Source: a virus (Duplodnaviria; Caudoviricetes). From it: DNA of 64,000 nt. A program made the position numbers and the translations under genes. Below the pieces are notes generated by a model, which was not told the DNA's origin, searched no databases, and was given only the letters and a program-made list of their open reading frames with translations. Below, piece by piece: positions 1 through 11,130 of the stretch. The stretch is from positions 1 to 64,000 of IMG/VR virus record IMGVR_UViG_3300049144_000095; one strand, written 5' to 3'. Positions within the stretch are counted from its first letter, which is position 1. Each line of letters opens with the position of its first letter.

Positions 1-108
1 GTGCTGGCCATGACCAACCAGTACTGGGACCAGAACGGCGACCCCATCGAGTACGCCCTGGACTTCCTCGGGGCTGGCAGAGAGTTGTCCGCTGAGTACA
101 ACATCTGA
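1..108 (+). CDS. 3' end of a probable GntR/HutC-family regulator (UTRA domain C-terminus), partial
   Basis: Frame 1 reads VLAMTNQYWDQNGDPIEYALDFLGAGRELSAEYNI*, resembling the last strands of a UTRA domain and the C-terminus of the neighbouring GntR. Confidence 0.5.
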   Translation: MLAMTNQYWDQNGDPIEYALDFLGAGRELSAEYNI

Positions 109-209: not shown

Positions 210-944
210 TCACAGGCTGTTGTGAAACGAGAAGCGGCGCTTCCCGTCCGCGATCTTCACGCCCACCTCGACGACACGGCCGTTGGCCAGCAGGACACGG
301 CGCACCGCCTCACCGACCGTAGGGTAGGGGCCCTTCAGGTCGAGCAGTTGACGCTCCTCGTCGCTCGCCAGCCGCGAGGTGACATCCGTGAAGACCTCCG
401 CCTGCGTCGAACCCATCCGTTCGGCGGCGAGTTCCCGGGAGCCCGACGGAATGGACTCGGACCGCGCCAGCTCCGGTGTCACCGCCGTGACCTCGGGCGG
501 GTAGTACGAAAATCCTGTTGCCACCGGCTTGCCGTCGATCAGGTTCAGCCGCTGTCGGCGCAGCACCTCCTCGCCGGGCTGCACTCCCAGGTGGTGTGCG
601 ATGTCGGGCGGGCAGGGGACCATCCCGATGGACAGGATCTGCGTCGTCTCGTTCTTGCCGAGCGCCCGGCCCGTGGCTGCGCGGTTCTCTGCCCGGTTCA
701 CCACGGTCGCATTGCGGTGCGAAAAATCCGCAACGATCGGCGGCCGATTGCCGTCCGACGGCTCCAGGTAGCCCTCTGCTGTCAGCAGTTCCACGACCTT
801 GTCGATCGTGGCTCGCGACGTGTTGTACTCCTTCACCATCTTCCGTCGTGCGATGAGGGCAGTACCGGGTTCCAGGGCGCCGGACGTGATCTGTCCGCGC
901 AAACTCTGGGCAATAGCCCTGTACTTGGGGATTCGCTCACTCAC
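210..944 (-). CDS. GntR/HutC-family transcriptional regulator (KorA/TraR/KorSA-like), wHTH + UTRA
   Basis: PKYRAIAQSLRGQITSGALEPG...YNTSRATIDKVVELLTAEGY is a GntR wHTH; C-terminal EEVLRRQRLNLIDGKPV UTRA-like; GTG at 944 preceded by GAAGGAG. Confidence 0.9.
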   Translation of the reverse strand: MSERIPKYRAIAQSLRGQITSGALEPGTALIARRKMVKEYNTSRATIDKVVELLTAEGYLEPSDGNRPPIVADFSHRNATVVNRAENRAATGRALGKNETTQILSIGMVPCPPDIAHHLGVQPGEEVLRRQRLNLIDGKPVATGFSYYPPEVTAVTPELARSESIPSGSRELAAERMGSTQAEVFTDVTSRLASDEERQLLDLKGPYPTVGEAVRRVLLANGRVVEVGVKIADGKRRFSFHNSL

Positions 945-963
945 GCTCTCTCTCTCCTTCACC

Positions 964-992
964 TTGTGGCCTAGGCCGTATTGTGTCATGCT
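964..992 (+). promoter_or_regulatory. Putative promoter TTGTGG-N17-CATGCT overlapped by operator TGGCCTAGGCCG (967-978)
   Basis: Read directly; lies between the divergent GntR and membrane-protein genes. Confidence 0.55.
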
Positions 993-1168
993 GGAGTCCG
1001 CAACGCCAGCCACGAAGGAGCGTTGCGGAGAACGCAAGACACGAGTGAGAACCCTTGCGGCTCTCTGGGTGAGGACCAGCCTCCCTTGCAAACGGCCCAG
1101 GCCAGGATATCGCCCTGCCTGCGGAACGTGTCAGGAGGCATCCAGCCCACTCGGACGGAAGGAGAAAC

Positions 1169-2134
1169 GTGACAACGCCGGTGACGGTTCCACCGAAGCC
1201 GACTCGCGACCCCGACGTCCACCTGAAGGACCGTGGCGCCAGCAAGAAGCCGCGCACCCTGAAGGGTGACATCGAGAAGCTGAGAGGCAAGGCGTCGGAG
1301 GTTCGCAGCAAGTGGACCACCGGACGACAGGCAGCAGCCGGAAAGAAGAGGGAGGTCAGACGGAAGGCCGGGGACGTCCTGGCCCCCGCGAAGAAGAGGG
1401 TCAGCGAGGAGAGGCAGCTCGCCGACGAGACGGTGAAGTCGATCTACAAGGCCATCGGTTCGGTGCGTTCGGCACTCGATCCGGCCAAGGGGAAGGCTCG
1501 TCCGTACGTCACGTCCTTCCTGATCTCGTGCGTGATCTCGTGGGCCCTGGGGCCGCAGGTACTCGTAGCCATCTACGAACGACTCTGGTTCCACACGAGC
1601 ACGACGAGCTGGGGTGTGCTGCACGGACCGGGGCGCTGGTTCCGGGACACGGTGGGCATGGCTGCCGAGACGGGGCAGATGTTCGGCCTGATCGCCGCGA
1701 TCTGCCTGGGGGTGACACCCATGTTCCTGTTCAGCGTGAGGAACATGGTGGCGAAGTACCTCGCCGAGTCGCCGTACTACGGCAAGGCGGGCAGGTTCGC
1801 CATCAGGTGGCTTGCTCGGGCCCCTTACCTGGTTCCGACCGTCTACCTCATCGGCGTGGCCTACCCGCAGTACGTCACTCCGGTCTTCGGCAGCCCCTGG
1901 CGGCTGGAGATGTGGCACTTCTACGTGGCCGGACTCTTCTGCACTACGTACTACTTCACGATGTGGGTCTTCGATCGAATCGAACGGCTCCGCGTCGAAC
2001 GGCAGGCCATGTCTGCCGAGGAGCAAGCCAGTACCCAGACCATGGGGCCCGGCATGTTCCACGCACTCCTGATGGTCCCGCTGGCTTCGATCATCTCGGG
2101 TGCACTCCTCTACACCCCGAACGCTGCCTGGTAG
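1169..2134 (+). CDS. Multi-pass membrane protein with basic N-terminus (possibly spread/transfer-type)
   Basis: RBS AAGGAG; Lys/Arg-rich first 110 aa then several hydrophobic segments. Confidence 0.75.
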   Translation: MTTPVTVPPKPTRDPDVHLKDRGASKKPRTLKGDIEKLRGKASEVRSKWTTGRQAAAGKKREVRRKAGDVLAPAKKRVSEERQLADETVKSIYKAIGSVRSALDPAKGKARPYVTSFLISCVISWALGPQVLVAIYERLWFHTSTTSWGVLHGPGRWFRDTVGMAAETGQMFGLIAAICLGVTPMFLFSVRNMVAKYLAESPYYGKAGRFAIRWLARAPYLVPTVYLIGVAYPQYVTPVFGSPWRLEMWHFYVAGLFCTTYYFTMWVFDRIERLRVERQAMSAEEQASTQTMGPGMFHALLMVPLASIISGALLYTPNAAW

Positions 2135-2248
2135 TAGAGGGGCCTCCGTTGCGGAGCGAGTCGCTTGGATTGCAAACCAAGCGACGCCGGGTCAAACCGG
2201 CCGGAGGTACGAAGCGGTGAAAGGCGCCGCTGGAAAGGAGAAGAGGTC

Positions 2249-2311
2249 GTGAACTTCAAGGACGACGACCACAACGGAATGCCGGTGCGCGAGCCGCGCC
2301 CCGGTAACTGA
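2249..2311 (+). CDS. Possible 20-aa peptide MNFKDDDHNGMPVREPRPGN
   Basis: Strong GAAAGGAG RBS before GTG; too short for the ORF track. Confidence 0.3.
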   Translation: MNFKDDDHNGMPVREPRPGN

Positions 2312-2360
2312 CGAGGGGGCAGAACGCCAAGGGGCGTTCTCTTCGAGAAAGGGAGTAAAG

Positions 2361-2933
2361 GTGTTCCAGGCCATCGTGCAGCAGCAGCGGATCGAGGTTC
2401 CTGAGACCTCGTGGCTCGGCCACATGTCGATGGCGGGATTCGGTCTGGCCATCTTCATCGTCTCGGTCCTGTGCATCAACGGATCGAAGAAGACGCAGAA
2501 GCAGATGGGGCCCTGGGGTCCATTCTTCACGGTCGTCATGAACAAGACCGTGACGGAGCCGACCAAGCGCATCGCGATGAAGTGGGGAGGTGGAGATGAA
2601 GGGTTCGACTGGCGCTCACTGATGACATTCCTGATCGGAATGCTGGGCATGACGGCGATCCTCAGCTCCACCGGCGGCTTCGTCCTGACGCTGGCCGACT
2701 TCTTCCAGGGCCTGCTCATGAAGATGTCCGGCTGGCCGGTTCTCGCGGATCTCGGTGCAGGTGGCCTGTGCTTCATCCTGGTCATCCTGGCGATGCGGAA
2801 CCGGGGTGACGACAAGGCGGACCTCGGCTACGGCGCGGCGTGCGGGTTCATCTTCCCGCTGGGCGGCGGCACGTGGTCGGAGATCACCCTTCAGGTCGGG
2901 CACTGGATTCCGCAGATCATGCACATCGGCTGA
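2361..2933 (+). CDS. Membrane protein, about 4 TM segments
   Basis: RBS AAAGGGAG; alternating hydrophobic helices; terminator follows. Confidence 0.75.
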   Translation: MFQAIVQQQRIEVPETSWLGHMSMAGFGLAIFIVSVLCINGSKKTQKQMGPWGPFFTVVMNKTVTEPTKRIAMKWGGGDEGFDWRSLMTFLIGMLGMTAILSSTGGFVLTLADFFQGLLMKMSGWPVLADLGAGGLCFILVILAMRNRGDDKADLGYGAACGFIFPLGGGTWSEITLQVGHWIPQIMHIG

Positions 2934-2943
2934 ACCTCGCCAC

Positions 2944-2977
2944 AACGGCCCGGAACTCAATCGAGTTCCGGGCCGTT
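2944..2977 (+). terminator. Intrinsic terminator
   Basis: Perfect 15-bp stem AACGGCCCGGAACTC/GAGTTCCGGGCCGTT, T-rich tail shortly after. Confidence 0.8.
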
Positions 2978-2992
2978 CCGTGTTTTCTTGCA

Positions 2993-3022
2993 TTGCTAAA
3001 CGGCCTAGGCCAGTGTTAGTCT
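2993..3022 (+). promoter_or_regulatory. HrdB-type promoter TTGCTA-N18-TAGTCT with operator CGGCCTAGGCCA (3001-3012) in the spacer
   Basis: Read directly; upstream of SLT gene. Confidence 0.7.
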
Positions 3023-3049
3023 GGGGTTTCACTCGGAAAGGAGGATCGA

Positions 3050-3673
3050 ATGCGCAAGGTCGGAGGAATTTTCGTCGGCACGTTCCTACTGGTCGGCGCC
3101 GCCCAGGCGATCACCGGCTTCGTTCCAGCCGCTCCCTCAGCGGCGAACGAGCTTCCAGCGCAGAGGGTTGGCGATGCACAGGACGCGAAGTTCACCGGAA
3201 GCAGTGCGCCGATCCGTGCCGGATCCGTCCCGAACAAGCGGTGGGAAGAGCTGATCGACAAGTGGGGCAATAAGTGCAAAGCCCTCACTCCGGCAATTCT
3301 GGCCGCTCAGCTCCACCAGGAATCCATGGGATTCAACCCGCGCGTCGTCTCGGGTCAGAGGAATTCCCCGGTCGGTGCTCGTGGCATCGCACAGTTCATG
3401 CCTGGAACGTGGGCAGATCATGGGGTTGACGCGAACAAGGACGGTAAGCGCGACATCATCGACCCCGAGGACGCCATTCCCTCTGCCGCTGTCTACGACT
3501 GCAAGGTGGCCCGAAGCGTCCGCCACGTCTCCGGCAACGTCACGGACAACATGCTCGCCGGATACAACGCCGGATCGGGCGCAGTCCTGAAATACGGCGG
3601 CATACCGCCGTACAGCGAAACGCAGAACTACGTCAGGATCATCAAGAAGAAGGCGGGAAGGTTCGAGCGGTGA
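3050..3673 (+). CDS. Secreted lytic transglycosylase (SLT domain)
   Basis: ILAAQLHQES (catalytic Glu), GARGIAQFMPGTW, LAGYNAG, ETQNYV motifs; N-terminal signal peptide. Confidence 0.9.
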   Translation: MRKVGGIFVGTFLLVGAAQAITGFVPAAPSAANELPAQRVGDAQDAKFTGSSAPIRAGSVPNKRWEELIDKWGNKCKALTPAILAAQLHQESMGFNPRVVSGQRNSPVGARGIAQFMPGTWADHGVDANKDGKRDIIDPEDAIPSAAVYDCKVARSVRHVSGNVTDNMLAGYNAGSGAVLKYGGIPPYSETQNYVRIIKKKAGRFER

Positions 3674-4269
3674 GTCGCAGGCATCATGGCGCTCTGGCTA
3701 TTTCGGCAGTTGCTGCGTGCGCAGCCCTGTCCACCGGGTGCGGAGCGCTGCACGCTGCTCCGATAACCAACGCCAAGGCCAACGACAACCCGGCCATCGA
3801 GAAGGTCAACTGGTACTCGCCTGAGCAGCGGGCGAAGGAGGCCGCGCGACAAGAAAGCGATGCGCGCGTGGCCCCTCGCCTTCCAGGAGATGCGGCTGCC
3901 GTAGCCATTGCTTACGCTCGCACAAAGATCGGAGTTCCCTACCTCTGGGGCGGCACTGGAACGAAGGCGCAAGGAGGACGGTTCGACTGCTCCGGACTCA
4001 CCCAGGCGGCGTATGCGAAAGCAGGCATCAAGCTGCCGCGCGTAGCCAACGACCAGTGGAACGCGAGCGACAACCACCCTTCCTGGAATGACCTCAAGCC
4101 GGGCGATCTCGTCTTCTTCGGTCAGAAGGGAAACTCTCGCTCCATCCATCACGTGGGCATTTACATCGGCGACGGAAAGATGCTGCACGCCCCGCGTACC
4201 GGCACCTTCATTCGGATAAACGGAGTGCACTACATGTCCGACTATTTCGGGGCCACGCGAGTCGCCTAG
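3670..4269 (+). CDS. NlpC/P60 cell-wall peptidase, probable lipoprotein
   Basis: IGVPYLWGG, FDCSGL, PGDLVFF, HVGIYIGDGKMLHAP; N-terminal ALSTGC lipobox-like; GTGA overlap with SLT. Confidence 0.92.
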   Translation: MSRRHHGALAISAVAACAALSTGCGALHAAPITNAKANDNPAIEKVNWYSPEQRAKEAARQESDARVAPRLPGDAAAVAIAYARTKIGVPYLWGGTGTKAQGGRFDCSGLTQAAYAKAGIKLPRVANDQWNASDNHPSWNDLKPGDLVFFGQKGNSRSIHHVGIYIGDGKMLHAPRTGTFIRINGVHYMSDYFGATRVA

Positions 4270-4314
4270 CCGATCAAACAGTCACTGAACCAACGGATCG
4301 AAACGGAACACTTC

Positions 4315-5160
4315 ATGCGTATCGAAATCCGCAACACGTACGGCACCCCGCACACCTGCGGGACCAGCCCGGCCCACGTCACGGGTTGCGACCGCTACCG
4401 GTTACCTCTGGTCGGCATCATCACCCCCGACAATCCAGCCTACGAAGACATGGTGCAATGGCTGAAGGATGACGGCAACGATACCCGTCCTGAAGGCTAC
4501 GGACTGATCTTCCTGGAGTCCGAGGAGTTTTCTGCCACCTACTTCGGATCGATCGCCCAGATCGAGCAGTACCAGCGTGAAAACGTAGACGGAACTGCAA
4601 CCTTCGACGCCTCGCAGGGTGTCATGTATGCCCAGTGGCCCCACGGGAAAGGTTGGGACGACTACATCCCTCGCGTCTTTTGGAACACCCAAGCGCGCGG
4701 CGCCATTGCCGACGGCGTCGGTCTTGTCACCGCTTTCGCACACACCGAAGTCCAGGGCGCGGACATCATCGTCTACGAGTTCGAAGGTGCATGGACTTAC
4801 GGCGGCGAGACGGAGCGAATGGTCACATACCACTGCACCGCCTGCCATAAGGACACCTTCCACGACTCCGGCCACGTCCACGAGAACACCGGCCCCAGCA
4901 GTCGCCGCTGGGCTGCCCGTCAGGCACGCGAGCACATCATCAGCGCCGCCCGGCACGGCGTCGGCGACACCAACAGCGCCTGCCGCCCCGACAACGGCGA
5001 AATGCTGCGTGTCGTGAACGCCGTGGCGCGAGACAAGCTGGGCACCACAAGCAACGTGCTTCCGGATACCGACGACGCGTACTGCGCCACCAAGGGTCCC
5101 TGCTCGATCCTTCGCAAACTCCGCGCCGGAATTCGTCCGCCTGTCTACCGTCAGATCTGA
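4315..5160 (+). CDS. Hypothetical protein with CxxC-H motif; contains a TTA codon
   Basis: 281-aa ORF; YHCTACH; TTA at 4402-4404. Confidence 0.65.
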   Translation: MRIEIRNTYGTPHTCGTSPAHVTGCDRYRLPLVGIITPDNPAYEDMVQWLKDDGNDTRPEGYGLIFLESEEFSATYFGSIAQIEQYQRENVDGTATFDASQGVMYAQWPHGKGWDDYIPRVFWNTQARGAIADGVGLVTAFAHTEVQGADIIVYEFEGAWTYGGETERMVTYHCTACHKDTFHDSGHVHENTGPSSRRWAARQAREHIISAARHGVGDTNSACRPDNGEMLRVVNAVARDKLGTTSNVLPDTDDAYCATKGPCSILRKLRAGIRPPVYRQI

Positions 5161-5183
5161 GGATCAGGAAAGGGGTGTCATTC

Positions 5184-5525
5184 ATGGAAAGCCTCAGGGA
5201 ACGCCGAGGTGTCCTCGACTTCGAAGTTGAGGTGATGAAGCCACTCAGCAAGAAGCGGCTGATACGCATGGCTCTCCAGTGGGACGACATGCTACGCCTC
5301 CCCCTGTCAGGCGACATCGTCACCGTGGGCCGCTGCGGGCTCAAGGTGGTTCACGGTCCGGCTTCAGACGAGATGCTGTTGAACAGTCCGACAGTGGCCG
5401 TCGACCCCTACTTCGCACCCCCGTACTGGTACGCGAGGTACGACGAAGTGTGGACGAGCGCCGAAGGGCTGGCCGCAGCGTTCGCCGGGGACCCCCGGCA
5501 CCTCTCCGTCGAGGTGCTGGTGTGA
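5184..5525 (+). CDS. Hypothetical protein
   Basis: RBS GGAAAGGGG; stop overlaps next start. Confidence 0.6.
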   Translation: MESLRERRGVLDFEVEVMKPLSKKRLIRMALQWDDMLRLPLSGDIVTVGRCGLKVVHGPASDEMLLNSPTVAVDPYFAPPYWYARYDEVWTSAEGLAAAFAGDPRHLSVEVLV

Positions 5526-6241
5526 AGGGGTCGGTGCACGCGGCCATCGGCGCCTCGGCGCCCGTCACCCTCGTCGCCACGCAGCACGTCTCACTGGTGC
5601 AGGGCGCGGTCATGGCCGCCGTGTCGGCCGGATATGCCCTCCTGCCGGATATCGACCACCCGCTGTCCTGTGCATCGACAGCGCTCGGTAGGGTCACCCA
5701 CAAGGCCGTCCGCAGTCTCTGCAAGGCGACGGTACGCGCGACTTCCACGCACAGGGACTTGGGATACCGGCAGCACATGCGGGTGCGCTACCCCTCGAAG
5801 GACTTCTATCACCGCACCCTCACCCACACCCTGGCCGCAGCTCTCGGGATCGGGGTGACCGTCTACGTGACGAGCTGGATGAGCATGGCGGCGTCTGGTC
5901 TCGTGGCGGCCCTGGGCGTCTACTTGCTCTGGCCCTTGAGGAAGGTCACAAAGGGAGTGGTGATCCTGGGTGCGATGGCCGCAGCCGCCGGATCCGCCCT
6001 CACCTTGACGCCGTGGCTGATCACGCTCGCCGTCACATGCGGGTACATCAGCCACGTGGCGGCCGACGCCTGCACCAAGTCGGGCGTGCCAGCACTCTGG
6101 CCCCTCCCGGTCAAGGGGAAGCGCTGGTGGAACATCCGGATCCTGGACAGCATGGTGACCTCCGGGTCGGCTCTGGAGAAGGGCCCGGCGGTGGGGGTCT
6201 CGGTGTTCGCGAACATCGCGCTGATGTTCCTGAAGTTCTGA
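5522..6241 (+). CDS. Membrane metal-dependent hydrolase (YdjM/DUF457-like)
   Basis: GSVHA...LLPDIDHP...HRTLTHT...GYISHVAADACTKSGVPALWP motif series. Confidence 0.85.
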   Translation: MKGSVHAAIGASAPVTLVATQHVSLVQGAVMAAVSAGYALLPDIDHPLSCASTALGRVTHKAVRSLCKATVRATSTHRDLGYRQHMRVRYPSKDFYHRTLTHTLAAALGIGVTVYVTSWMSMAASGLVAALGVYLLWPLRKVTKGVVILGAMAAAAGSALTLTPWLITLAVTCGYISHVAADACTKSGVPALWPLPVKGKRWWNIRILDSMVTSGSALEKGPAVGVSVFANIALMFLKF

Positions 6242-6243
6242 CG

Positions 6244-6269
6244 AAACCCCGGCCTCGGCCGGGGTTTTT
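6244..6269 (+). terminator. Intrinsic terminator
   Basis: AAACCCCGGCC/GGCCGGGGTTT stem ending in T-run. Confidence 0.8.
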
Positions 6270-6341
6270 GGCTCTTTGCGCACAACCCCTTCATGCCGCA
6301 CAATCGAAGGCGGAAGTGGAGGGAAAGGTGATGCGATAACC

Positions 6342-6755
6342 GTGACGGATGGTCTCTACGAGAGGGATGAGGTCTGGGGTTCGACTGCCCGTCGCACCCT
6401 CCGTTTCGCGCACCCTGACGCGCACGCATCGGTCAGCCCGGAGACCGGCGCTGACCTCGGCCGGGCCTCGGTGGAGGCGAACAGGACAGACGCCTTCGGT
6501 CCCGAAGCGGTGGTGCGTGCCCGCGCGATGGACTACGAGCTGACGACGCGCATCCAGCAGGAGTCGCCCTACGCCCAGGAGACCGTGGTCGAGCACCGTG
6601 TGCACGATTACCGGCTCTACGTCGGAATGTGGGTCGTCGCGGGGCTCAGCGGCGTCTCAGCGTTCCTCACGTACTCCCTGTGGCATCTGCTGATCACTGT
6701 GGTCGCGGTGGCCTTCGCCCTGATGTCGTCACCGGGGCGGCAGTACGCGGACTGA
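6342..6755 (+). CDS. Membrane protein, 2 C-terminal TM segments
   Basis: Hydrophobic LYVGMWVVAGLSGVSAFL and LLITVVAVAFALM; start uncertain. Confidence 0.6.
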   Translation: MTDGLYERDEVWGSTARRTLRFAHPDAHASVSPETGADLGRASVEANRTDAFGPEAVVRARAMDYELTTRIQQESPYAQETVVEHRVHDYRLYVGMWVVAGLSGVSAFLTYSLWHLLITVVAVAFALMSSPGRQYAD

Positions 6756-6781
6756 CCCGGCGCCCACTCGAACCAACCTCT

Positions 6782-6832
6782 TGGCACCCATTGTGGAATG
6801 GGTGCCATTCTGCTTAGAATTGGCCTAGGCCG
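6782..6832 (+). promoter_or_regulatory. Promoter TTGTGG-N18-TAGAAT with 11-bp inverted repeat over -35 and operator TGGCCTAGGCCG (6821-6832) right after -10
   Basis: TGGCACCCATT-gtgg-AATGGGTGCCA (6782-6807); TAGAAT 6815-6820. Confidence 0.75.
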
Positions 6833-6852
6833 TTTTTGAGGAGGAGGTGGCC

Positions 6853-7272
6853 ATGGCTGGACGACCCAGGCAGGACGGTGCAGAGGTCCGTAACCGGCAG
6901 TTGTCGGTCCGGTGGACCAGTACCGAGTACGACCTCATCAAGGTAGCCAAGGAGCAGAACGGCATCCGCTACCTGGTGGACGTCCCGCGCATCATGACCC
7001 TGCGGCAGATCGAGCTGGAGAAGGTCATCGGCAAGAGTGCCGACAACCTGGAGAAGGTCCGGCGCGTCGCGGAACTCGCCTCGGCAGATGAGGTGCTGAG
7101 CCTGACCCTGAAGCAGATCAAACTTCAGGACGCCATCGGGGACGGCATGAAAGACGTCGAATCCGTACGACGAACTCTCGGGCTGGAGACAGTGGAAGAC
7201 ACGCTCTGGGCTCTCGCGAAAGCTCAGATCGAACAGATGCGTTCCGCGCTCGAAAGGGACGTGGCAGAGTAG
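6853..7272 (+). CDS. Ribbon-helix-helix (MobC/CopG-like) DNA-binding protein with coiled coil
   Basis: RNRQLSVRWTSTEYDLIKVAKEQNG fits an RHH strand-helix; RBS GAGGAGG. Confidence 0.65.
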   Translation: MAGRPRQDGAEVRNRQLSVRWTSTEYDLIKVAKEQNGIRYLVDVPRIMTLRQIELEKVIGKSADNLEKVRRVAELASADEVLSLTLKQIKLQDAIGDGMKDVESVRRTLGLETVEDTLWALAKAQIEQMRSALERDVAE

Positions 7273-7277
7273 TCACC

Positions 7278-7460
7278 ATGAGCGCAAATCCCAACGACCC
7301 TCTGCTCACCGTCCCTGAAGCCGCCCGGCGCATGCGCGTAAGGGAGAGGCAGGTGCGAAAGATCCTCGCCCGCAATCTCGTTCAGGGCGTCCGGACGCAC
7401 CTCGGGATCTGCTACAGGCAGGACGACGTGGACGCGGTCGCATCGATAAAACGCCGATGA
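7278..7460 (+). CDS. Excisionase/MerR-like HTH protein
   Basis: LLTVPEAARRMRVRERQVRKIL...YRQDDVDA. Confidence 0.75.
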   Translation: MSANPNDPLLTVPEAARRMRVRERQVRKILARNLVQGVRTHLGICYRQDDVDAVASIKRR

Positions 7461-8354: not shown

Positions 8355-8714
8355 GTGCGCACGACCGGCGACGTCATCAGCCAGACCGTGAAGAACCTAC
8401 TGATGGAAGCTGTCAGGGAGGATCAGGACGCTCTGATCGTCAGTACACCCACCAAGGAGTACAACCGCAAGGTGCACGACCTGGCCGACTTCCTCGGGGT
8501 GTCGCGTCCCTACATGCCGCGCAAGATCCAGTCAGGCTCCTGGAGTGCCAGAGACCTGGACAGGCTGGCCATCTATTTCCGCAAGTACCCCCAAGATTTC
8601 GTCCCTGGTCCTCACGACGAGGGATGGGCGCTGTCGGACCGAGCGCCAGAAGGTAACGCATCGACAGATGTCAGTGCCTCGGGTGACAATCCGGAGATGC
8701 ACTCCGGAGCCTGA
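8355..8714 (+). CDS. XRE-like HTH protein
   Basis: HDLADFLGVSRPYMPRKIQSGSWSARDLDRLAIYF; RBS GAGGAGG. Confidence 0.65.
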   Translation: MRTTGDVISQTVKNLLMEAVREDQDALIVSTPTKEYNRKVHDLADFLGVSRPYMPRKIQSGSWSARDLDRLAIYFRKYPQDFVPGPHDEGWALSDRAPEGNASTDVSASGDNPEMHSGA

Positions 8715-8730
8715 TGAACCGAAAGACGGA

Positions 8731-11130
8731 ATGGAGAAGACCGTGACGGTGAAGTTCACGGACGAGCAGCAGGCTGCAATAGACCTCGCTGCCAAGGGTG
8801 AGTCGTTCTCCCTCATCGCCCCCGCCGGGTCGGGCAAGAGTGCCACGGCGGTCGGCATGGGTCAGGTGCTCCGAAAGAAGAAGGTGCTGTACCTGGTCTA
8901 CAACACGGCCGCCCGCAAGGAGGCTGAGGAAAAGTTCAAGAAGGCGGGCATGACCTGGGTGGACGTGCGCACCACCAGCCAGATCGCCTGGAGGGAGTAC
9001 GCCTACATCCAGGGCGCGAACTACGGCGAGCGGATGAAGCCCCGCGCAACGCACGTGCCCGCCACGGAGATCAGGGACACGCTCGGCCTGCATGACATCG
9101 ACTTCGGCGGCAACCTCGTCCTGAGCGGCTACACGCAGGCGGTGCTGGCAGAGCGGGCGATCGAGCGCTTCTGCAACTCCGCGCGCCCGGAGATCACCTA
9201 CAAGGACGTCGACCTCGTGGTGGCAGGTGTCGACGACATCATCCTGGACGCGGCACGCAAGCACATCGCCAAGCTGGCCAACCGGCTCTGGAAGCAGTGC
9301 GTCCGGCCGGACTCCGGACTGCGGTTCACCATGAACCACGCCTTCAAGCTGGTGGCCTCCGGCGGTGTCAACTACGGATACGACGTCGTGCTCGTGGACG
9401 AGGCGCAGGACTCGAACGACGCCACGATGCGGTTCATCACCAACCAGGTGGGCGCCCAGGCCATCCTGATCGGCGACCCGGCCCAGGCGCTCTACTGCCA
9501 GCCGCTGGGCACTCAGGTCGAGGTGGTTGACGGCGTGAGTGTCGGTTCGCAGCCCGCGAAGACCAAGTCTGTCGCCATCGAGGAGCTGAAGGTCGGCGAC
9601 CGTGTCGTCACCTACGACAACACGCACCTGTGGCGCCGGGGTCGCGAGATCACGCACATCACTCGCTTCGGGCACGACGGCGAGATGGTGAAGGCGACGA
9701 CGGAGTCCGGCCTGACGTCGTCGTATACGCCGAAGCACAACTGCATCGTGCGTATCGACGACAACCTGGCCGACAAGCATGTGGTGTACCTGATGCGGCG
9801 CGGCGATCAGTACCGGATCGGCCGCACGCGGATGATGTACAGCTCGCAGCACAAAGGCTTCGGGGTGGTACTGCGAGGCCGACGCGAGAAGGCCGACGCC
9901 GTCTGGATCCTCTCGCTGCACGACTCGGTTGGCGAGGCGTCTCTCATGGAGATGCTGACGCAGCACGAGTTCAACATCCCGGGTGTCCACTTCGAGTCCG
10001 TCGATGGGGATGTTGTGAACGCCGCTGAGTTCTGGCGGAAGCTGGGGTCCAACAAGGACAGTGGCGAGAAGTGCCTCGCTAGCTTCGGGCGGCTTGTGGA
10101 GTCCCCCCTATGGACGCCTGACATGCAGCACAGGATGGGCATCCGGGTGGCGTTCCCGACGGCTGCTGCCAACGTCATGGACGGCATGAAGATGCTTCCG
10201 CTTCGCAACGTCGACCGGAGATTCAAGGGCAAGGCCCCACGCCACGTCTGGGAGGAGGTGACGGTGGAAAAGTACTACTACGTCGGAGACGTCGTATCCC
10301 TGGAGGTCGACGAGCACCACAACTACTTCGGCGACGGGATCCTCACGCACAACTCCTGGCGTGGGGCGACCGACCAGATCATGCGCCACAAGGGCGAGAA
10401 GCTGTACCTCACCCAGTCGTTCCGCTTCGGAGACGCTGTCGCCGAGGAGGCGGGCAAGCACCTGGTGCACACCGAGACGGGCGTGACGATCAAGGGTCTC
10501 CCCTCCATCAACGACCAGGTCACCGAGGGCGACATGGTCAACCCGGACGTCGTCCTCACCCGGACCAACGGCGGCGCCATGGAGTGGGCGATCAGCTACC
10601 TGGCTGCCGGGAAGAGGGTGGCCCTGGTCAAGGGAACCGACACGATCCTGAACCTGGCCTACGCTGCCGCAGACCTGATGAAGGGCGTGAAGCCGAAGAG
10701 CCTCGAACTGAGCGCCTTCAAGACGTGGCAGGAGCTGGTGCAGTACACCGACGAGCCTGGCGGCGCCCAGTTCAAGCCGCTCGTGCGTCTCGTGCAGACC
10801 CATGGCGTGCACACGCTGATCGACGCGTGCAAGAAGATGGTGAAGTACGACGCGAAGTACCCCAGGCACGACGTGGCTGTGACCACGTGCCACTCCATCA
10901 AGGGCCTGGAGTGGGACAACGTGCAGATCGGGGACGATTTCTTCGAGCCCCGCCCGTTCGAGAACCCGCTCACCAACAAGATGGAGCCCGGGGTCATCGA
11001 CAAGCACGAGGCGATGATCCACTACGTGGCGGTCACCCGTGCGCGCCGCCACCTGGACCGGCACGGGCTGGCCTGGATCGACGAGTACGGCACCCCCGCC
11101 GGGGCCGACCGGATCGCCGTCGGTGGCTGA
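8731..11130 (+). CDS. UvrD/Rep-like SF1 helicase with intein
   Basis: APAGSGKS, YLVYN, DEAQD, GDPAQALY|SWRGA, LTQSFRFG, TCHSIKGLEW, YVAVTRAR. Confidence 0.92.
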   Translation: MEKTVTVKFTDEQQAAIDLAAKGESFSLIAPAGSGKSATAVGMGQVLRKKKVLYLVYNTAARKEAEEKFKKAGMTWVDVRTTSQIAWREYAYIQGANYGERMKPRATHVPATEIRDTLGLHDIDFGGNLVLSGYTQAVLAERAIERFCNSARPEITYKDVDLVVAGVDDIILDAARKHIAKLANRLWKQCVRPDSGLRFTMNHAFKLVASGGVNYGYDVVLVDEAQDSNDATMRFITNQVGAQAILIGDPAQALYCQPLGTQVEVVDGVSVGSQPAKTKSVAIEELKVGDRVVTYDNTHLWRRGREITHITRFGHDGEMVKATTESGLTSSYTPKHNCIVRIDDNLADKHVVYLMRRGDQYRIGRTRMMYSSQHKGFGVVLRGRREKADAVWILSLHDSVGEASLMEMLTQHEFNIPGVHFESVDGDVVNAAEFWRKLGSNKDSGEKCLASFGRLVESPLWTPDMQHRMGIRVAFPTAAANVMDGMKMLPLRNVDRRFKGKAPRHVWEEVTVEKYYYVGDVVSLEVDEHHNYFGDGILTHNSWRGATDQIMRHKGEKLYLTQSFRFGDAVAEEAGKHLVHTETGVTIKGLPSINDQVTEGDMVNPDVVLTRTNGGAMEWAISYLAAGKRVALVKGTDTILNLAYAAADLMKGVKPKSLELSAFKTWQELVQYTDEPGGAQFKPLVRLVQTHGVHTLIDACKKMVKYDAKYPRHDVAVTTCHSIKGLEWDNVQIGDDFFEPRPFENPLTNKMEPGVIDKHEAMIHYVAVTRARRHLDRHGLAWIDEYGTPAGADRIAVGG
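9496..10353 (+). mobile_element. Class-1 intein (286 aa) in helicase motif III
   Basis: Starts CQPLGT, block B YTPKH, ends EVDEHHNYFGDGILTHN followed by Ser; excision restores GDPAQALYSWRGA. Confidence 0.92.

Follow-up and report, generated by a model that had tools for sequence, protein, structure and literature searches.

The region at positions 210 to 7460 of the window, which is the whole 64,000-nucleotide stretch analysed here, combines a regulator, membrane proteins and cell wall hydrolases with the virion genes of a tailed phage on one molecule. An earlier note had described it as a conjugative-plasmid-like module on a candidate phage-plasmid. Two questions follow, namely whether the block is a conjugation module and whether the replicon carrying it is a phage-plasmid.

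Genome and relatives

The window belongs to a 251-kb contig from soil metagenomes, where it reached a high depth (~160-200x in one small run). Circular topology, proposed earlier as a point to check, was supported: the two ends of the contig share a 156-bp overlap with one mismatch, so the contig closes on itself. The first 156 bases of the window duplicate the contig end, and base 1 is crossed by metagenome contigs. The genome is collinear with phage Kela throughout, and 141 of its 325 ORFs match Kela.

31688-62946, minus strand: virion module (minor tail proteins, tape measure, major tail, capsid, protease, portal, terminase), collinear with Kela gp60-gp20

Virion proteins are 61-89% identical to those of Kela (tblastn; Kela annotation), which confirms, from terminase through minor tail, the siphovirus head-tail operon previously placed on the same molecule as the block. 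The 251-kb phage is a very large prolate siphovirus of the SEA-PHAGES cluster BM type. BM phages are described as prolate siphoviruses of 184-200 kb that have ~1-kb terminal repeats and lack integrase and repressor (PMC6687918, PMC10652959). No integrase or repressor is listed in the Kela annotation.

Two Streptomyces isolates also harbour relatives. Scaffold 14 of S. cucumeris NEAU-Y11 is a complete collinear phage genome (185,382 bp, 62% G+C, 127-bp end overlap), present as a circular, stand-alone contig within the isolate assembly. The 252,977-bp contig of Streptomyces sp. NPDC058947 carries the same block, together with ParA, its partner and the recombinase described below.

Regulators and membrane proteins

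1-108, plus strand: GntR2, 3' end of a second GntR/UTRA regulator (full gene at contig 250377-251111)
122-164, no strand: G+C-rich hairpin with 17-nt arms between convergent GntR genes (inverted repeat I2, 94% complementary)
210-1091, minus strand: GntR1, HutC-subfamily GntR/UTRA regulator, divergent from TM1 (Pfam)
1169-2134, plus strand: TM1, 321-aa membrane protein (hydropathy; AlphaFold model)
2361-2933, plus strand: TM2, 190-aa orphan membrane protein with 3-4 transmembrane segments (hydropathy)
2944-2977, plus strand: terminator-like hairpin with a 15-bp stem and T-rich tail, directly 3' of TM2

GntR1 possesses GntR (E 1.4e-8) and UTRA (1.6e-16) domains according to Pfam and matches phrog_10724 (2.3e-36). 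It shares 66% identity with Kela gp99, 61% with its NPDC058947 counterpart and 59% with that of S. cucumeris. With a KorA-type GntR encoded by a small plasmid of S. californicus, identity is 30%. Its true start probably lies near 989, because the homologs have 244 aa. GntR2 also has GntR (5.9e-9) and UTRA (1.8e-18) domains and is 35% identical to pIJ101 KorA; it is present in the NPDC058947 relative and absent from Kela. This second gene, which the earlier gene list had missed, ends at about 108 and converges on GntR1. The hairpin between them is probably a bidirectional terminator, and metagenome contigs end there at poly-G/C.

TM1 is predicted to start with a Lys/Arg-rich helix (residues ~31-102) and to continue as a bundle of membrane helices (AlphaFold, pLDDT 77). 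No match to TM1 was detected in Pfam, NCBIfam, PHROG or PADLOC, no fold match to the model was found in PDB and Atlas, and profile comparison with pIJ101 Tra and SpdB gave probabilities below 1% (hhalign). All 73 placeable TM1 homologs are located on contigs of the phage family. TM2 is 65% identical to Kela gp96 and had no tblastn match among 72,556 plasmids. Since a hairpin follows TM2, the two genes form a separate unit.

Wall hydrolases and neighbouring genes

3050-3673, plus strand: secreted SLT lytic transglycosylase (Pfam SLT 4.7e-12)
3670-4269, plus strand: NlpC/P60 endopeptidase lipoprotein (Pfam NlpC/P60 3.4e-27)
4315-5160, plus strand: p281, Cys/His-rich 281-aa protein, an insertion that among the phages only this one has, in common with Streptomyces plasmids
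5175-5525, plus strand: p116, small conserved orphan protein (identity 36% with Kela gp90 and 48% with its NPDC058947 counterpart)
5528-6241, plus strand: YdjM-family membrane hydrolase (Pfam YdjM 1.3e-18)
6782-6807, plus strand: terminator-like hairpin with an 11-bp stem
6847-7272, plus strand: p141, orphan
7278-7460, plus strand: small HTH protein, 60 aa, weak HTH_17 / MerR-Xis type
8545-11130, plus strand: UvrD-type helicase interrupted by an intein (Pfam AAA_19, UvrD-helicase, Intein_splicing, UvrD_C)

The transglycosylase possesses an N-terminal signal sequence and a catalytic QES motif (residues 90-92), and is 58% identical to Kela gp95, annotated as 'glycosyltransferase', and 45% identical to the SLT part of a pZL1 cell-wall hydrolase. 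The GTG start of the NlpC/P60 gene overlaps the SLT stop codon (GTGA), which points to translational coupling. The lipoprotein has the lipobox LSTGC and an intact Cys/His/His triad (motifs DCSG, HHVGI and LHA). It is 77% identical to Kela gp94, and has counterparts in NPDC058947 (79%) and S. cucumeris (56%). Judged by these motifs, both enzymes look active and exported. The YdjM protein also matches phrog_20744, 'hydrolase' (2.4e-25), and its gene is syntenic with Kela gp89 and the NPDC058947 YdjM gene. At the DNA level, p281 matches a hypothetical gene of Streptomyces plasmids, with 81-82% identity for most of the 17 plasmids, pFRL1 among them. No p281 match was found among 50,697 phage records, and Kela, the S. 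cucumeris element and NPDC058947 all lack the gene. Its family is small (43 representative clusters), and p281 recurs in an independent soil sample. This gene was also missing from the earlier list.

The divergent GntR regulator, the two multi-TM proteins (multi-pass by hydropathy, TM1 also in the model), the secreted SLT, the NlpC/P60 lipoprotein and the YdjM-like hydrolase of the earlier note were all recovered with the domains and signals given above. Its 'MobC-like RHH', p141, was not: no family in Pfam (even at E<=10), NCBIfam, PHROG or PADLOC was matched, and p141 shares 33% identity with its NPDC058947 counterpart and, in a partial match, 43% with that of S. cucumeris. The 'Xis-like HTH' stood in part. 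The HTH_17 match is weak (E 0.005, 17 bits, below the cut-off of 27), and its homolog Kela gp85, 61% identical, is annotated as 'HTH DNA binding'. The helicase that follows matches Kela gp81 DNA helicase and opens a replication gene block 3' of the region.

Conservation of the block

The order GntR, TM1, TM2, SLT, NlpC/P60, p116, YdjM, small HTH and helicase is syntenic in cluster BM, as seen in the Streptomyces phages Kela, JustBecause, Satis and Frankenweenie, and can be followed gene by gene in Kela (gp99-gp81), the S. cucumeris element and the NPDC058947 contig. Because it is syntenic in BM phages published without integrase or repressor, the block is family-conserved phage DNA. It does not come from a conjugative plasmid, since TM1 and TM2 have no plasmid, Spd or Tra relatives and the 251-kb genome gave no match to a T4SS ATPase or TrwC-type relaxase (T4SS-DNA_transf, AAA_10, TrwC). 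Against a conjugative-plasmid module, as first proposed, stand synteny with strictly lytic BM phages, placeable TM1 homologs confined to the phage family and membrane proteins free of plasmid relatives. On balance, we favour a conserved phage 'envelope' block over a conjugation module at 210-7460, with a phage-plasmid as the most likely carrying replicon.

Partition cassette and recombinase

Outside the window, the 251-kb phage possesses a parA-partner-palindrome cassette in common with Streptomyces plasmid pZL1. ParA was detected with Pfam CbiA (30 bits, above cut-off) and NCBIfam ParA_partition (E 1.5e-15, a score below the equivalog cut-off). Two neighbouring pZL1 genes are their counterparts, with 53% identity for ParA and 49% for its partner. 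The partner has no recognisable ParB, HTH or RHH fold; its family occurs with 65-69% identity on other ~250 kb contigs of the lineage and with ~50-56% on many plasmid-sized Streptomyces contigs. A perfect 22-bp palindrome, AGTTGTATCGCGCGATACAACT, has exactly two copies in the 251 kb (232266 and 234436), the latter a few bases 3' of the stop codon of the partner gene. In pZL1, too, two palindromes that share a 16-bp core with that of the phage immediately follow the partner gene. The two palindromes would likely be the centromere of a plasmid-type parA-partner operon.

The genome also encodes a tyrosine recombinase (Pfam Phage_integrase, 78 bits; Arg, His-x-x-Arg and Tyr present), with 60-65% identity to the recombinases of many circular plasmids (85-99 kb) from Streptomyces. 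The plasmid-phage pCQ4, of the ~90-kb class, has the same recombinase family, plus phage tail genes and ParA/ParB. The enzyme is likely a multimer resolvase or integrase. It could be a chromosomal integrase, for which an attB search in the S. cucumeris genome, a weak test, found nothing. ParA and recombinase have no counterparts in BM phage records. The traB, parAB, rep and integrase genes that had been proposed as a check outside the window were thus partly found, as a Tra/KilA protein, ParA with a partner, and the recombinase; no plasmid Rep protein was identified in the 251-kb genome, in which an iteron-like array adjoins a winged-helix gene.

An ordinary lytic jumbo phage, with par cassette, recombinase and plasmid-like gene as inert or repurposed cargo, is a fairly unlikely explanation. 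Published accounts call all cultured relatives non-temperate (PMC10652959), the 251-kb genome yielded no CI-type repressor, and both the high soil depth and the gene exchange with plasmids evident from p281 (82% DNA identity to plasmid genes) agree with it. The phage-sized contigs in the isolate assemblies could then reflect a chronic carrier infection or contamination rather than a stable plasmid. However, ParA, partner and palindromes are conserved jointly, with the plasmid and at 65-69% across the 250-kb lineage, and conservation as a set points to a functioning system under purifying selection. The S. cucumeris element possesses its own, different parA-partner-palindrome set beside GntR1, together with the same recombinase (64%), so that two sublineages each have the trait independently. 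Moreover, two separate isolates carry lineage members, one as a whole circular contig.

Possible function of the block

The hairpins split the block into units. TM1-TM2 would form a two-gene membrane-protein unit, divergent from GntR1 and closed by the strong hairpin. The next unit would comprise the Sec-exported transglycosylase coupled to the NlpC/P60 lipoprotein, then YdjM, with the small HTH protein and helicase after it. From their domains, the exported hydrolases and membrane proteins may remodel the hyphal wall or cross-walls locally, from the membrane side, during infection, and GntR may set the timing, with a small-molecule ligand at the UTRA domain as cue.

Signal-peptide endolysins are known from other Gram-positive phages, which favours another use of these enzymes: an accessory lysis cassette, in which exported muralytic enzymes, together with membrane proteins of a holin-like or regulatory kind, aid the endolysin against the thick Streptomyces wall late in infection. 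The block does encode two exported, active-looking peptidoglycan hydrolases, for which endolysin and tail-lysin domains are the closest matches in PHROG, with membrane proteins immediately upstream. Nonetheless, a canonical endolysin with small downstream genes is located elsewhere (contig 238278-239207, 57% identical to Kela gp117; Kela gp117-120), so the block would not be the main lysis system, and the NPDC058947 relative carries a separate Amidase_2+LysM endolysin. The block adjoins regulator and replication genes, a position expected of early or middle genes and away from the late genes, and TM1 (321 aa, long basic N-terminus) is unlike known holins. We regard accessory lysis as improbable, although domain-based evidence would fit wall remodelling, accessory lysis and superinfection exclusion alike.

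An Spd-like spreading or mating apparatus under a KorA-like GntR, moving phage or plasmid DNA between hyphal compartments or mycelia with the Tra-family translocase of the phage, appears similarly doubtful. It would imply transmission by both virion and conjugation, and the 251-kb phage might then spread conjugatively through the mycelium. An SLT and NlpC/P60 pair is the usual content of Gram-positive conjugation wall hydrolases (CwlT, PrgK), in favour of such an apparatus, and the SLT resembles that of pZL1 (45%). The layout recalls pIJ101, where korA (GntR) is divergent from tra-spdA-spdB-kilB, and the plasmid-phage pZL12 offers a precedent, with transfer via a major tra gene plus two genes next to it (PMC3583192). 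Aligned over their full length, GntR1 and GntR2 share 30-35% identity with regulators of the KorA type, but such values are nothing unusual for HutC-type proteins. A Tra (pIJ101 KilA)-type FtsK-like translocase is encoded outside the window (28-31% identical across 73-82% of its length, E 4e-26 to 5e-45) and keeps the Walker A, Walker B and WATQxP motifs. However, it lies ~30 kb from the block with no membrane-protein genes beside it, and lacks the N-terminal ~190 residues of pIJ101 Tra, which contain the membrane segment. Its surroundings showed no clt-like repeat cluster, and its conservation extends to lytic BM phages and to small Streptomyces phages. It would be a soluble DNA translocase common to the entire phage family. 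TM1 and TM2 are also unlike SpdA, SpdB, KilB, DUF2637 and Tra, and no plasmid homologs were found.

Returning to the conserved phage block on a phage-plasmid, the earlier phage-plasmid proposal is supported by the par genes, recombinase, circular contig and isolate relatives, and not by the block as a plasmid module. The additions over lytic BM phages would be the parA-partner operon with its palindromes and the tyrosine recombinase. Based on soil metagenome sequence and the contigs of its isolate relatives, the 251-kb phage is probably a giant phage-plasmid (plasmid-prophage).

Gene content of the regulator and wall-hydrolase block

An earlier note, made from the sequence alone, described positions 210-7460 of the window as a conjugative-plasmid-like module on a tailed phage, and its gene list proved largely right. 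A GntR regulator gene with a UTRA domain (GntR1, 210-1091, minus strand; Pfam) is divergent from the plus-strand gene starting at 1169, and the two multi-TM proteins that had been listed correspond to the membrane proteins TM1 (1169-2134) and TM2 (2361-2933). The secreted SLT protein was recovered by Pfam at 3050-3673, with a signal sequence and the catalytic motif QES. The lipobox LSTGC and all three residues of the Cys/His/His triad are present in the NlpC/P60 lipoprotein (Pfam NlpC/P60, 3670-4269), whose GTG start codon overlaps the SLT stop codon. A YdjM-like hydrolase is encoded at 5528-6241 (Pfam YdjM), as proposed. Two names from that list did not hold: the protein called a MobC-like RHH (6847-7272) had no match in four libraries, including Pfam at E <= 10, and the 60-aa protein called Xis-like matched HTH_17 only below the cut-off. 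No PADLOC model for defence functions matched any block protein. The full siphovirus head-tail module reported on the same molecule is complete, including terminase, portal, protease, capsid, tail tube, tape measure and minor tail proteins.

A second GntR/UTRA gene, GntR2, absent from the earlier list, ends at window base ~108 and converges on GntR1 across a strong hairpin. Upstream of GntR2, shortly ahead of window base 1 when the circle is closed, lies the inverted repeat GTGAGCTAGTA(N15)TACTAGCTCAC (positions 250290-250376 of the whole record, hereafter contig), a candidate autoregulatory operator of the HutC type. The search for an operator shared by the GntR1/TM1 intergenic region and other promoters revealed no notable recurring 11-mer. 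Terminator-like hairpins at 2944-2977 and 6782-6807 divide the block into a TM1-TM2 unit, a hydrolase unit, and a unit from the small HTH gene to the helicase. The UvrD-type helicase gene (window 8545-11130) harbours an intein (Intein_splicing domain, residues ~341-603), whereas its homologs in phage Kela and in the related contig of Streptomyces sp. NPDC058947 (~495-537 aa) lack it.

Genome structure and relationship to cluster BM phages

The phage genome is a single IMG/VR virus contig of 251,159 bp with 65% G+C, and the window is its first 64 kb. The terminal 156 bases of the contig repeat the first 156 with one mismatch, and metagenome contigs of two runs span window base 1, so that this base marks a cut made in assembly, not an end of the molecule. 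Logan contigs place the phage in at least four soil metagenome samples. The joints seen in these contigs are short-sided and are probably those of other organisms.

DNA searches matched only large Streptomyces phages, namely Kela, JustBecause, Frankenweenie, Satis, Kradal, Quantum and EhyElimayoE. Against the Kela genome, reassembled from its annotated record, 141 of 325 ORFs (43%) had tblastn matches, using GC3-called ORFs and not Phamerator phams, and their order is collinear across the whole genome. Membership in cluster BM is set at 35% or more shared gene content with cluster members, a threshold that the predicted ORFs of this phage exceed in the comparison with Kela. Identity to Kela reaches 77% for the terminase, 80% for the portal, 89% for the major capsid protein and 85% for the major tail protein (tblastn); the protease, tape measure, minor tail proteins, DNA polymerase I, primase-helicase and endolysin were also matched. 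Cluster BM phages are prolate-headed siphoviruses of 184-200 kb with terminal repeats of ~1 kb (PMC6687918), and the description of Frankenweenie reports the absence of integrase and repressor (PMC10652959).

Four genes outside the window enter the comparison.

Genes outside the window considered in the comparison (contig coordinates)
220464-221804: FtsK-like gene (Tra homolog), Pfam FtsK_SpoIIIE at 22 bits only
234465-235385, minus strand: partner gene, 306 aa, adjoining ParA
235385-236350, minus strand: ParA, homologous to a member of the pZL1 pair
69069-70175, minus strand: tyrosine recombinase, catalytic residues intact

This phage shares with Satis, JustBecause, Kela, Kradal and Frankenweenie a collinear genome with virion proteins 61-89% identical, the block from GntR through TM1, TM2, SLT, P60, YdjM and HTH to the helicase, the FtsK-like Tra homolog, a Ro60 gene and the endolysin. 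It differs in size (251 kb versus 184-200 kb) and in carrying, in addition, a cassette of parA, partner and palindromes, the tyrosine recombinase, the second GntR/UTRA gene, a plasmid-derived gene of 281 aa, and large unique regions at 73-100 kb and 175-197 kb. At contig 245111-245201, five to six tandem copies of an 18-bp repeat lie within a 520-aa ORF (243884-245446) and probably encode a repetitive protein segment.

The block as conserved phage core

The order GntR1, TM1, TM2, SLT, NlpC/P60, p116, YdjM, small HTH and helicase is kept in three relatives: in Kela, where it spans gp99 to gp81, and equally in the Streptomyces cucumeris element and the NPDC058947 contig. Among 73 TM1 homologs, every placeable one is on a contig of this phage family, and the one in phage EhyElimayoE is annotated as 'membrane protein'. 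TM2 had no match among 72,556 plasmids. A TM1 model built from a 43-sequence alignment (pLDDT 77 overall, 85-94 in the membrane bundle) resembled nothing in PDB (Foldseek) or in the ESM Atlas (shape search), with a best E of 0.2 and TM <0.3, and all scores stayed <0.9 in a language-model Atlas search with TM1, TM2 and the 281-aa protein.

The 251-kb genome has no match to the T4SS coupling protein (PF02534), the AAA_10 ATPase (PF12846) or the TrwC relaxase (PF08751), the relaxase search covering the TrwC type only, and the scanned large unique ORFs contain no VirD4, VirB4, TraG or relaxase domains. There is no gene for a membrane-anchored FtsK/SpoIIIE-family Tra translocase in 210-7460. Spd, KilB and DUF2637 proteins were likewise not found by tblastn against pIJ101 and a related plasmid, nor DUF2637 by Pfam at E <= 10, and the TM1 family profile aligned to pIJ101 Tra and SpdB with a probability <1% (hhalign). 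GntR1 and GntR2 are 30-35% identical to KorA-type proteins, a level not specific within the HutC subfamily. With its predicted GntR-family regulator divergent from the neighbouring genes, the block nonetheless presents the feature known from KorA, TraR and KorSA.

The likeness to the kor/tra/spd locus of pIJ101 consists of a KorA-type GntR regulator divergent from an operon with membrane proteins, and of a Tra/KilA-family translocase in the same genome. Unlike in pIJ101, the phage translocase gene lies away from the block and its product is anchorless; lytic phages also keep the locus, and neither SpdA, SpdB and KilB homologs nor a clt were found. The label of a conjugative-plasmid-like module is therefore unsupported for 210-7460, given the synteny in BM phages, the lack of T4SS ATPase and TrwC-type relaxase matches, and the absence of Spd or Tra kin of TM1 and TM2. 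Because the gene order is syntenic, the placeable TM1 homologs lie on phage contigs, TM2 has no plasmid match and the transfer genes searched for were not found in it, the block belongs to the conserved phage core, in lytic members too.

Nor is the block the main lysis cassette, since an endolysin homolog is encoded separately at contig 238278-239207; its counterpart in the NPDC058947 relative has Amidase_2 and LysM domains. From the domains alone, we read the block as a putative envelope-remodelling cassette, in which two exported wall hydrolases and membrane proteins would be controlled by a ligand-sensing HutC-type regulator. Paired septal wall hydrolases such as RpfB-RipA of mycobacteria and CwlT of ICEBs1 combine a lytic transglycosylase or muramidase with an NlpC/P60 endopeptidase, exported or lipid-anchored. 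The block likewise pairs a predicted lytic transglycosylase with a predicted NlpC/P60 enzyme, exported or lipid-anchored, but as two separate, translationally coupled genes.

A block gene shared with Streptomyces plasmids

The Cys/His-rich protein p281 (4315-5160, 281 aa), not on the earlier gene list, differs from its neighbours in the block. Its gene has 81-82% DNA identity to a hypothetical gene of Streptomyces plasmids, a level that holds for most of 17 matching plasmids, including pFRL1 and plasmids of S. rochei and S. albidoflavus. No counterpart was found in any related phage examined or in 50,697 phage records, and the protein-representative search returned a small family without annotation. 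The plasmid identity together with the absence from all phage records suggests a recent transfer of the p281 gene from plasmid to phage. Judged by DNA identity, p281 is the sole block gene demonstrably of plasmid origin.

A Tra/KilA-family translocase outside the block

The search for traB outside the window led to the FtsK-like gene, a Tra/KilA homolog, which lacks a membrane anchor and is shared with lytic phages. Its product matches Tra of small Streptomyces conjugative plasmids with E values of 5e-45 to 4e-26, including Tra/KilA of pIJ101, whose gene neighbours korA, spdA, spdB and kilB. Conserved in the alignment are the Walker A, Walker B and WATQxP motifs as well as a helix-turn-helix-like tail at the C-terminus. 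The N-terminal ~190 residues of Tra, membrane segment included, are missing, and the phage protein has no transmembrane segment. The genes flanking it encode soluble proteins. TM1 was considered as the missing anchor and rejected, as its profile is unrelated to pIJ101 Tra in hhalign; a weak tblastn match of TM1 within a Tra gene (E 0.008) was taken as chance.

Homologs of the translocase are 75% identical in Kela and JustBecause and ~42% identical in Satis and Frankenweenie, and occur in small Streptomyces phages too, so the gene is not special to this genome. Near it, no cluster of 8-mer repeats resembling a clt was found and GACCCGGA is scattered, a weak negative as clt sequences vary among plasmids. 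Published notes on the FtsK-like gene go no further than the remark that it 'might be used during replication' (PMC11536984). What Streptomyces phage annotations routinely call an 'FtsK-like DNA translocase' is, more specifically, homologous to conjugative Tra/KilA, and the use of a conjugation motor by phages of a mycelial host is therefore testable in Kela and Satis.

Partition cassette

Par genes, not visible in the window, are present at 232.2-236.8 kb of the contig, where ParA, its partner and 22-bp palindromes are conserved with plasmid pZL1. ParA is 53% and the partner 49% identical to an adjacent gene pair of pZL1, and neither has a counterpart in the BM phage records. The perfect 22-bp palindrome AGTTGTATCGCGCGATACAACT occurs in exactly two copies in the genome, at 232266 and 234436, the latter a few bases beyond the partner stop codon. 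In pZL1, the partner gene is likewise followed directly by two palindromes, which share the 16-bp core TGTATCGCGCGATACA with those of the phage. Partner homologs have 65-69% identity on other ~250 kb contigs of the phage lineage and ~50-56% on many plasmid-sized Streptomyces contigs, again after a ParA gene. The phage thus carries a predicted plasmid-type partition system of ATPase, partner and candidate centromere; as all three are conserved together between phage and plasmid, this is the strongest single evidence that the system works.

The partner model has a pLDDT of 74, with the N-terminal 75 residues disordered. Neither fold nor profile searches matched the partner in PDB, so 'ParB' would be a positional label only, and a ParB_N search of the phage genome was negative. 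The pZL1 plasmid (Streptomyces sp. 14R-10, 127.9 kb), typed as conjugative MOBF/MPF_T by PLSDB, shares the par locus with the phage, but in the plasmid the pair adjoins a gene of the DUF2637 (SpdB) type and T4SS-type functions, neither of which the phage has. Exactly between the par palindromes of the phage are a gene for a Thg1-like tRNA-His guanylyltransferase (contig 232268-233089) and a 422-aa orphan gene (233120-234388).

Recombinase and possible origin

An integrase, also sought beyond the window, is represented by the tyrosine recombinase, which BM phages lack. Its identity to the recombinases of dozens of Streptomyces replicons of 85-99 kb is 60-65%. Among them is pCQ4, a circular plasmid on which phage tail genes occur together with ParA/ParB, and all these replicons form part of the pool of plasmid-phages resembling pZL12. 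A search for serine recombinases in the phage genome was negative. Neither a tRNA fragment nor a conserved core that could mark attP was found beside the recombinase genes of the two elements, and the search for attB in the S. cucumeris genome gave chance-level matches only (E >= 0.08), a weak test that a short core could escape. Of the tyrosine recombinase domains, a 349-aa ORF (contig 191182-192231) has the N-terminal SAM-like one only, with no catalytic domain detected, and is possibly a degenerate second recombinase.

In a region that Kela lacks, four TTGCATGATGA repeats with an exact spacing of 22 bp (contig 189046-189113) lie upstream of a winged-helix gene of 161 aa (188285-188770, minus strand). 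Homologs of this gene, 30-38% identical, are encoded on many large Streptomyces plasmids, and no Rep family was matched. The array is a possible iteron-type plasmid origin.

Relatives in Streptomyces isolates

Scaffold 14 of Streptomyces cucumeris NEAU-Y11, reached through a capsid protein match, has 185,382 bp, 62% G+C and a 127-bp overlap between its ends. The whole scaffold is collinear with the phage genome (143 ORFs matched) and encodes a recombinase of 64% identity in the same slot. It possesses its own ParA-partner pair, directly downstream of and co-oriented with GntR1, and right after this pair, at 132957-133014, two copies of a different palindrome, TGTGAACCATGGTTCACA, lie 34 bp apart, a candidate second and different centromere in the same phage family. 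In Streptomyces sp. NPDC058947, a contig of 252,977 bp carries the block together with both GntR genes, ParA, partner and recombinase. Two more isolate contigs, of 237 kb and 187 kb, that encode homologs of the recombinase or the partner were set aside, as their contexts are plasmid-like or chromosomal and they are not BM phages.

Chance contamination explains these contigs less well than plasmid prophages do, because two sublineages with different par cassettes were found in two independent isolates, with a complete circular contig of replicon size in one of the two. A carrier state could also lie behind phage contigs in isolate assemblies.

Phage-plasmid lifestyle and possible spread

The designation as a candidate phage-plasmid, in contrast to that of a conjugation module, is supported by the virion module, by ParA, partner and palindromes and the plasmid-phage recombinase outside the window, and by the relatives in isolates. 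Of the known Streptomyces plasmid-phages, pZL12 is the recognised extrachromosomal prophage (PMC7157519), to which pSLE1 is related (PMC4487206). Like this phage, pZL12, pCQ4 and pSLE1, circular plasmid prophages of ~85-90 kb, combine virion genes with par genes (ParA/ParB) on one circular replicon, and the recombinase is 63% identical to that of pCQ4. Otherwise pCQ4, of which 41 kb were examined, shares one small adjacent protein and one weak match, and represents an unrelated phage lineage. The present genome is ~3 times larger, and its par cassette is of the pZL1 type, not the ParB_N type.

In pZL12, transfer depends on a tra gene and two neighbours (PMC3583192), and by analogy we hypothesise that this phage may transfer by conjugation or spread through the mycelium. 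The hypothesis is weakened by the Tra homolog being anchorless and shared with lytic phages. A conjugation-derived spread within the mycelium by this family of large Streptomyces phages, of which the sublineage with par genes would be the clearest case, seems improbable to us. In such a process, the soluble Tra-type DNA pump would dock on phage membrane proteins such as TM1, the exported SLT and NlpC/P60 pair would aid it, and replicating phage or prophage DNA would be pushed over hyphal cross-walls or into fused neighbours, virion-free. If true, a virus of a multicellular bacterium would have a second way to spread, one like that of a plasmid. As for the flagged block, its predicted products are exported wall enzymes together with orphan membrane proteins, a conserved set linked to a regulator.

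Among actinobacterial prophages, the extrachromosomal ones are considered nearly exclusive to mycobacteriophage cluster A, pZL12 being the only one from Streptomyces (PMC7157519), and cluster BM phages are regarded as strictly lytic (PMC10652959). Our analysis points to a sublineage of 185-253-kb prolate siphoviruses with plasmid-type par genes and a plasmid-phage recombinase, probably present in Streptomyces isolates as a replicon of its own. Should this be confirmed, its members would rank among the largest known phage-plasmids, with hosts in the main genus of antibiotic producers.
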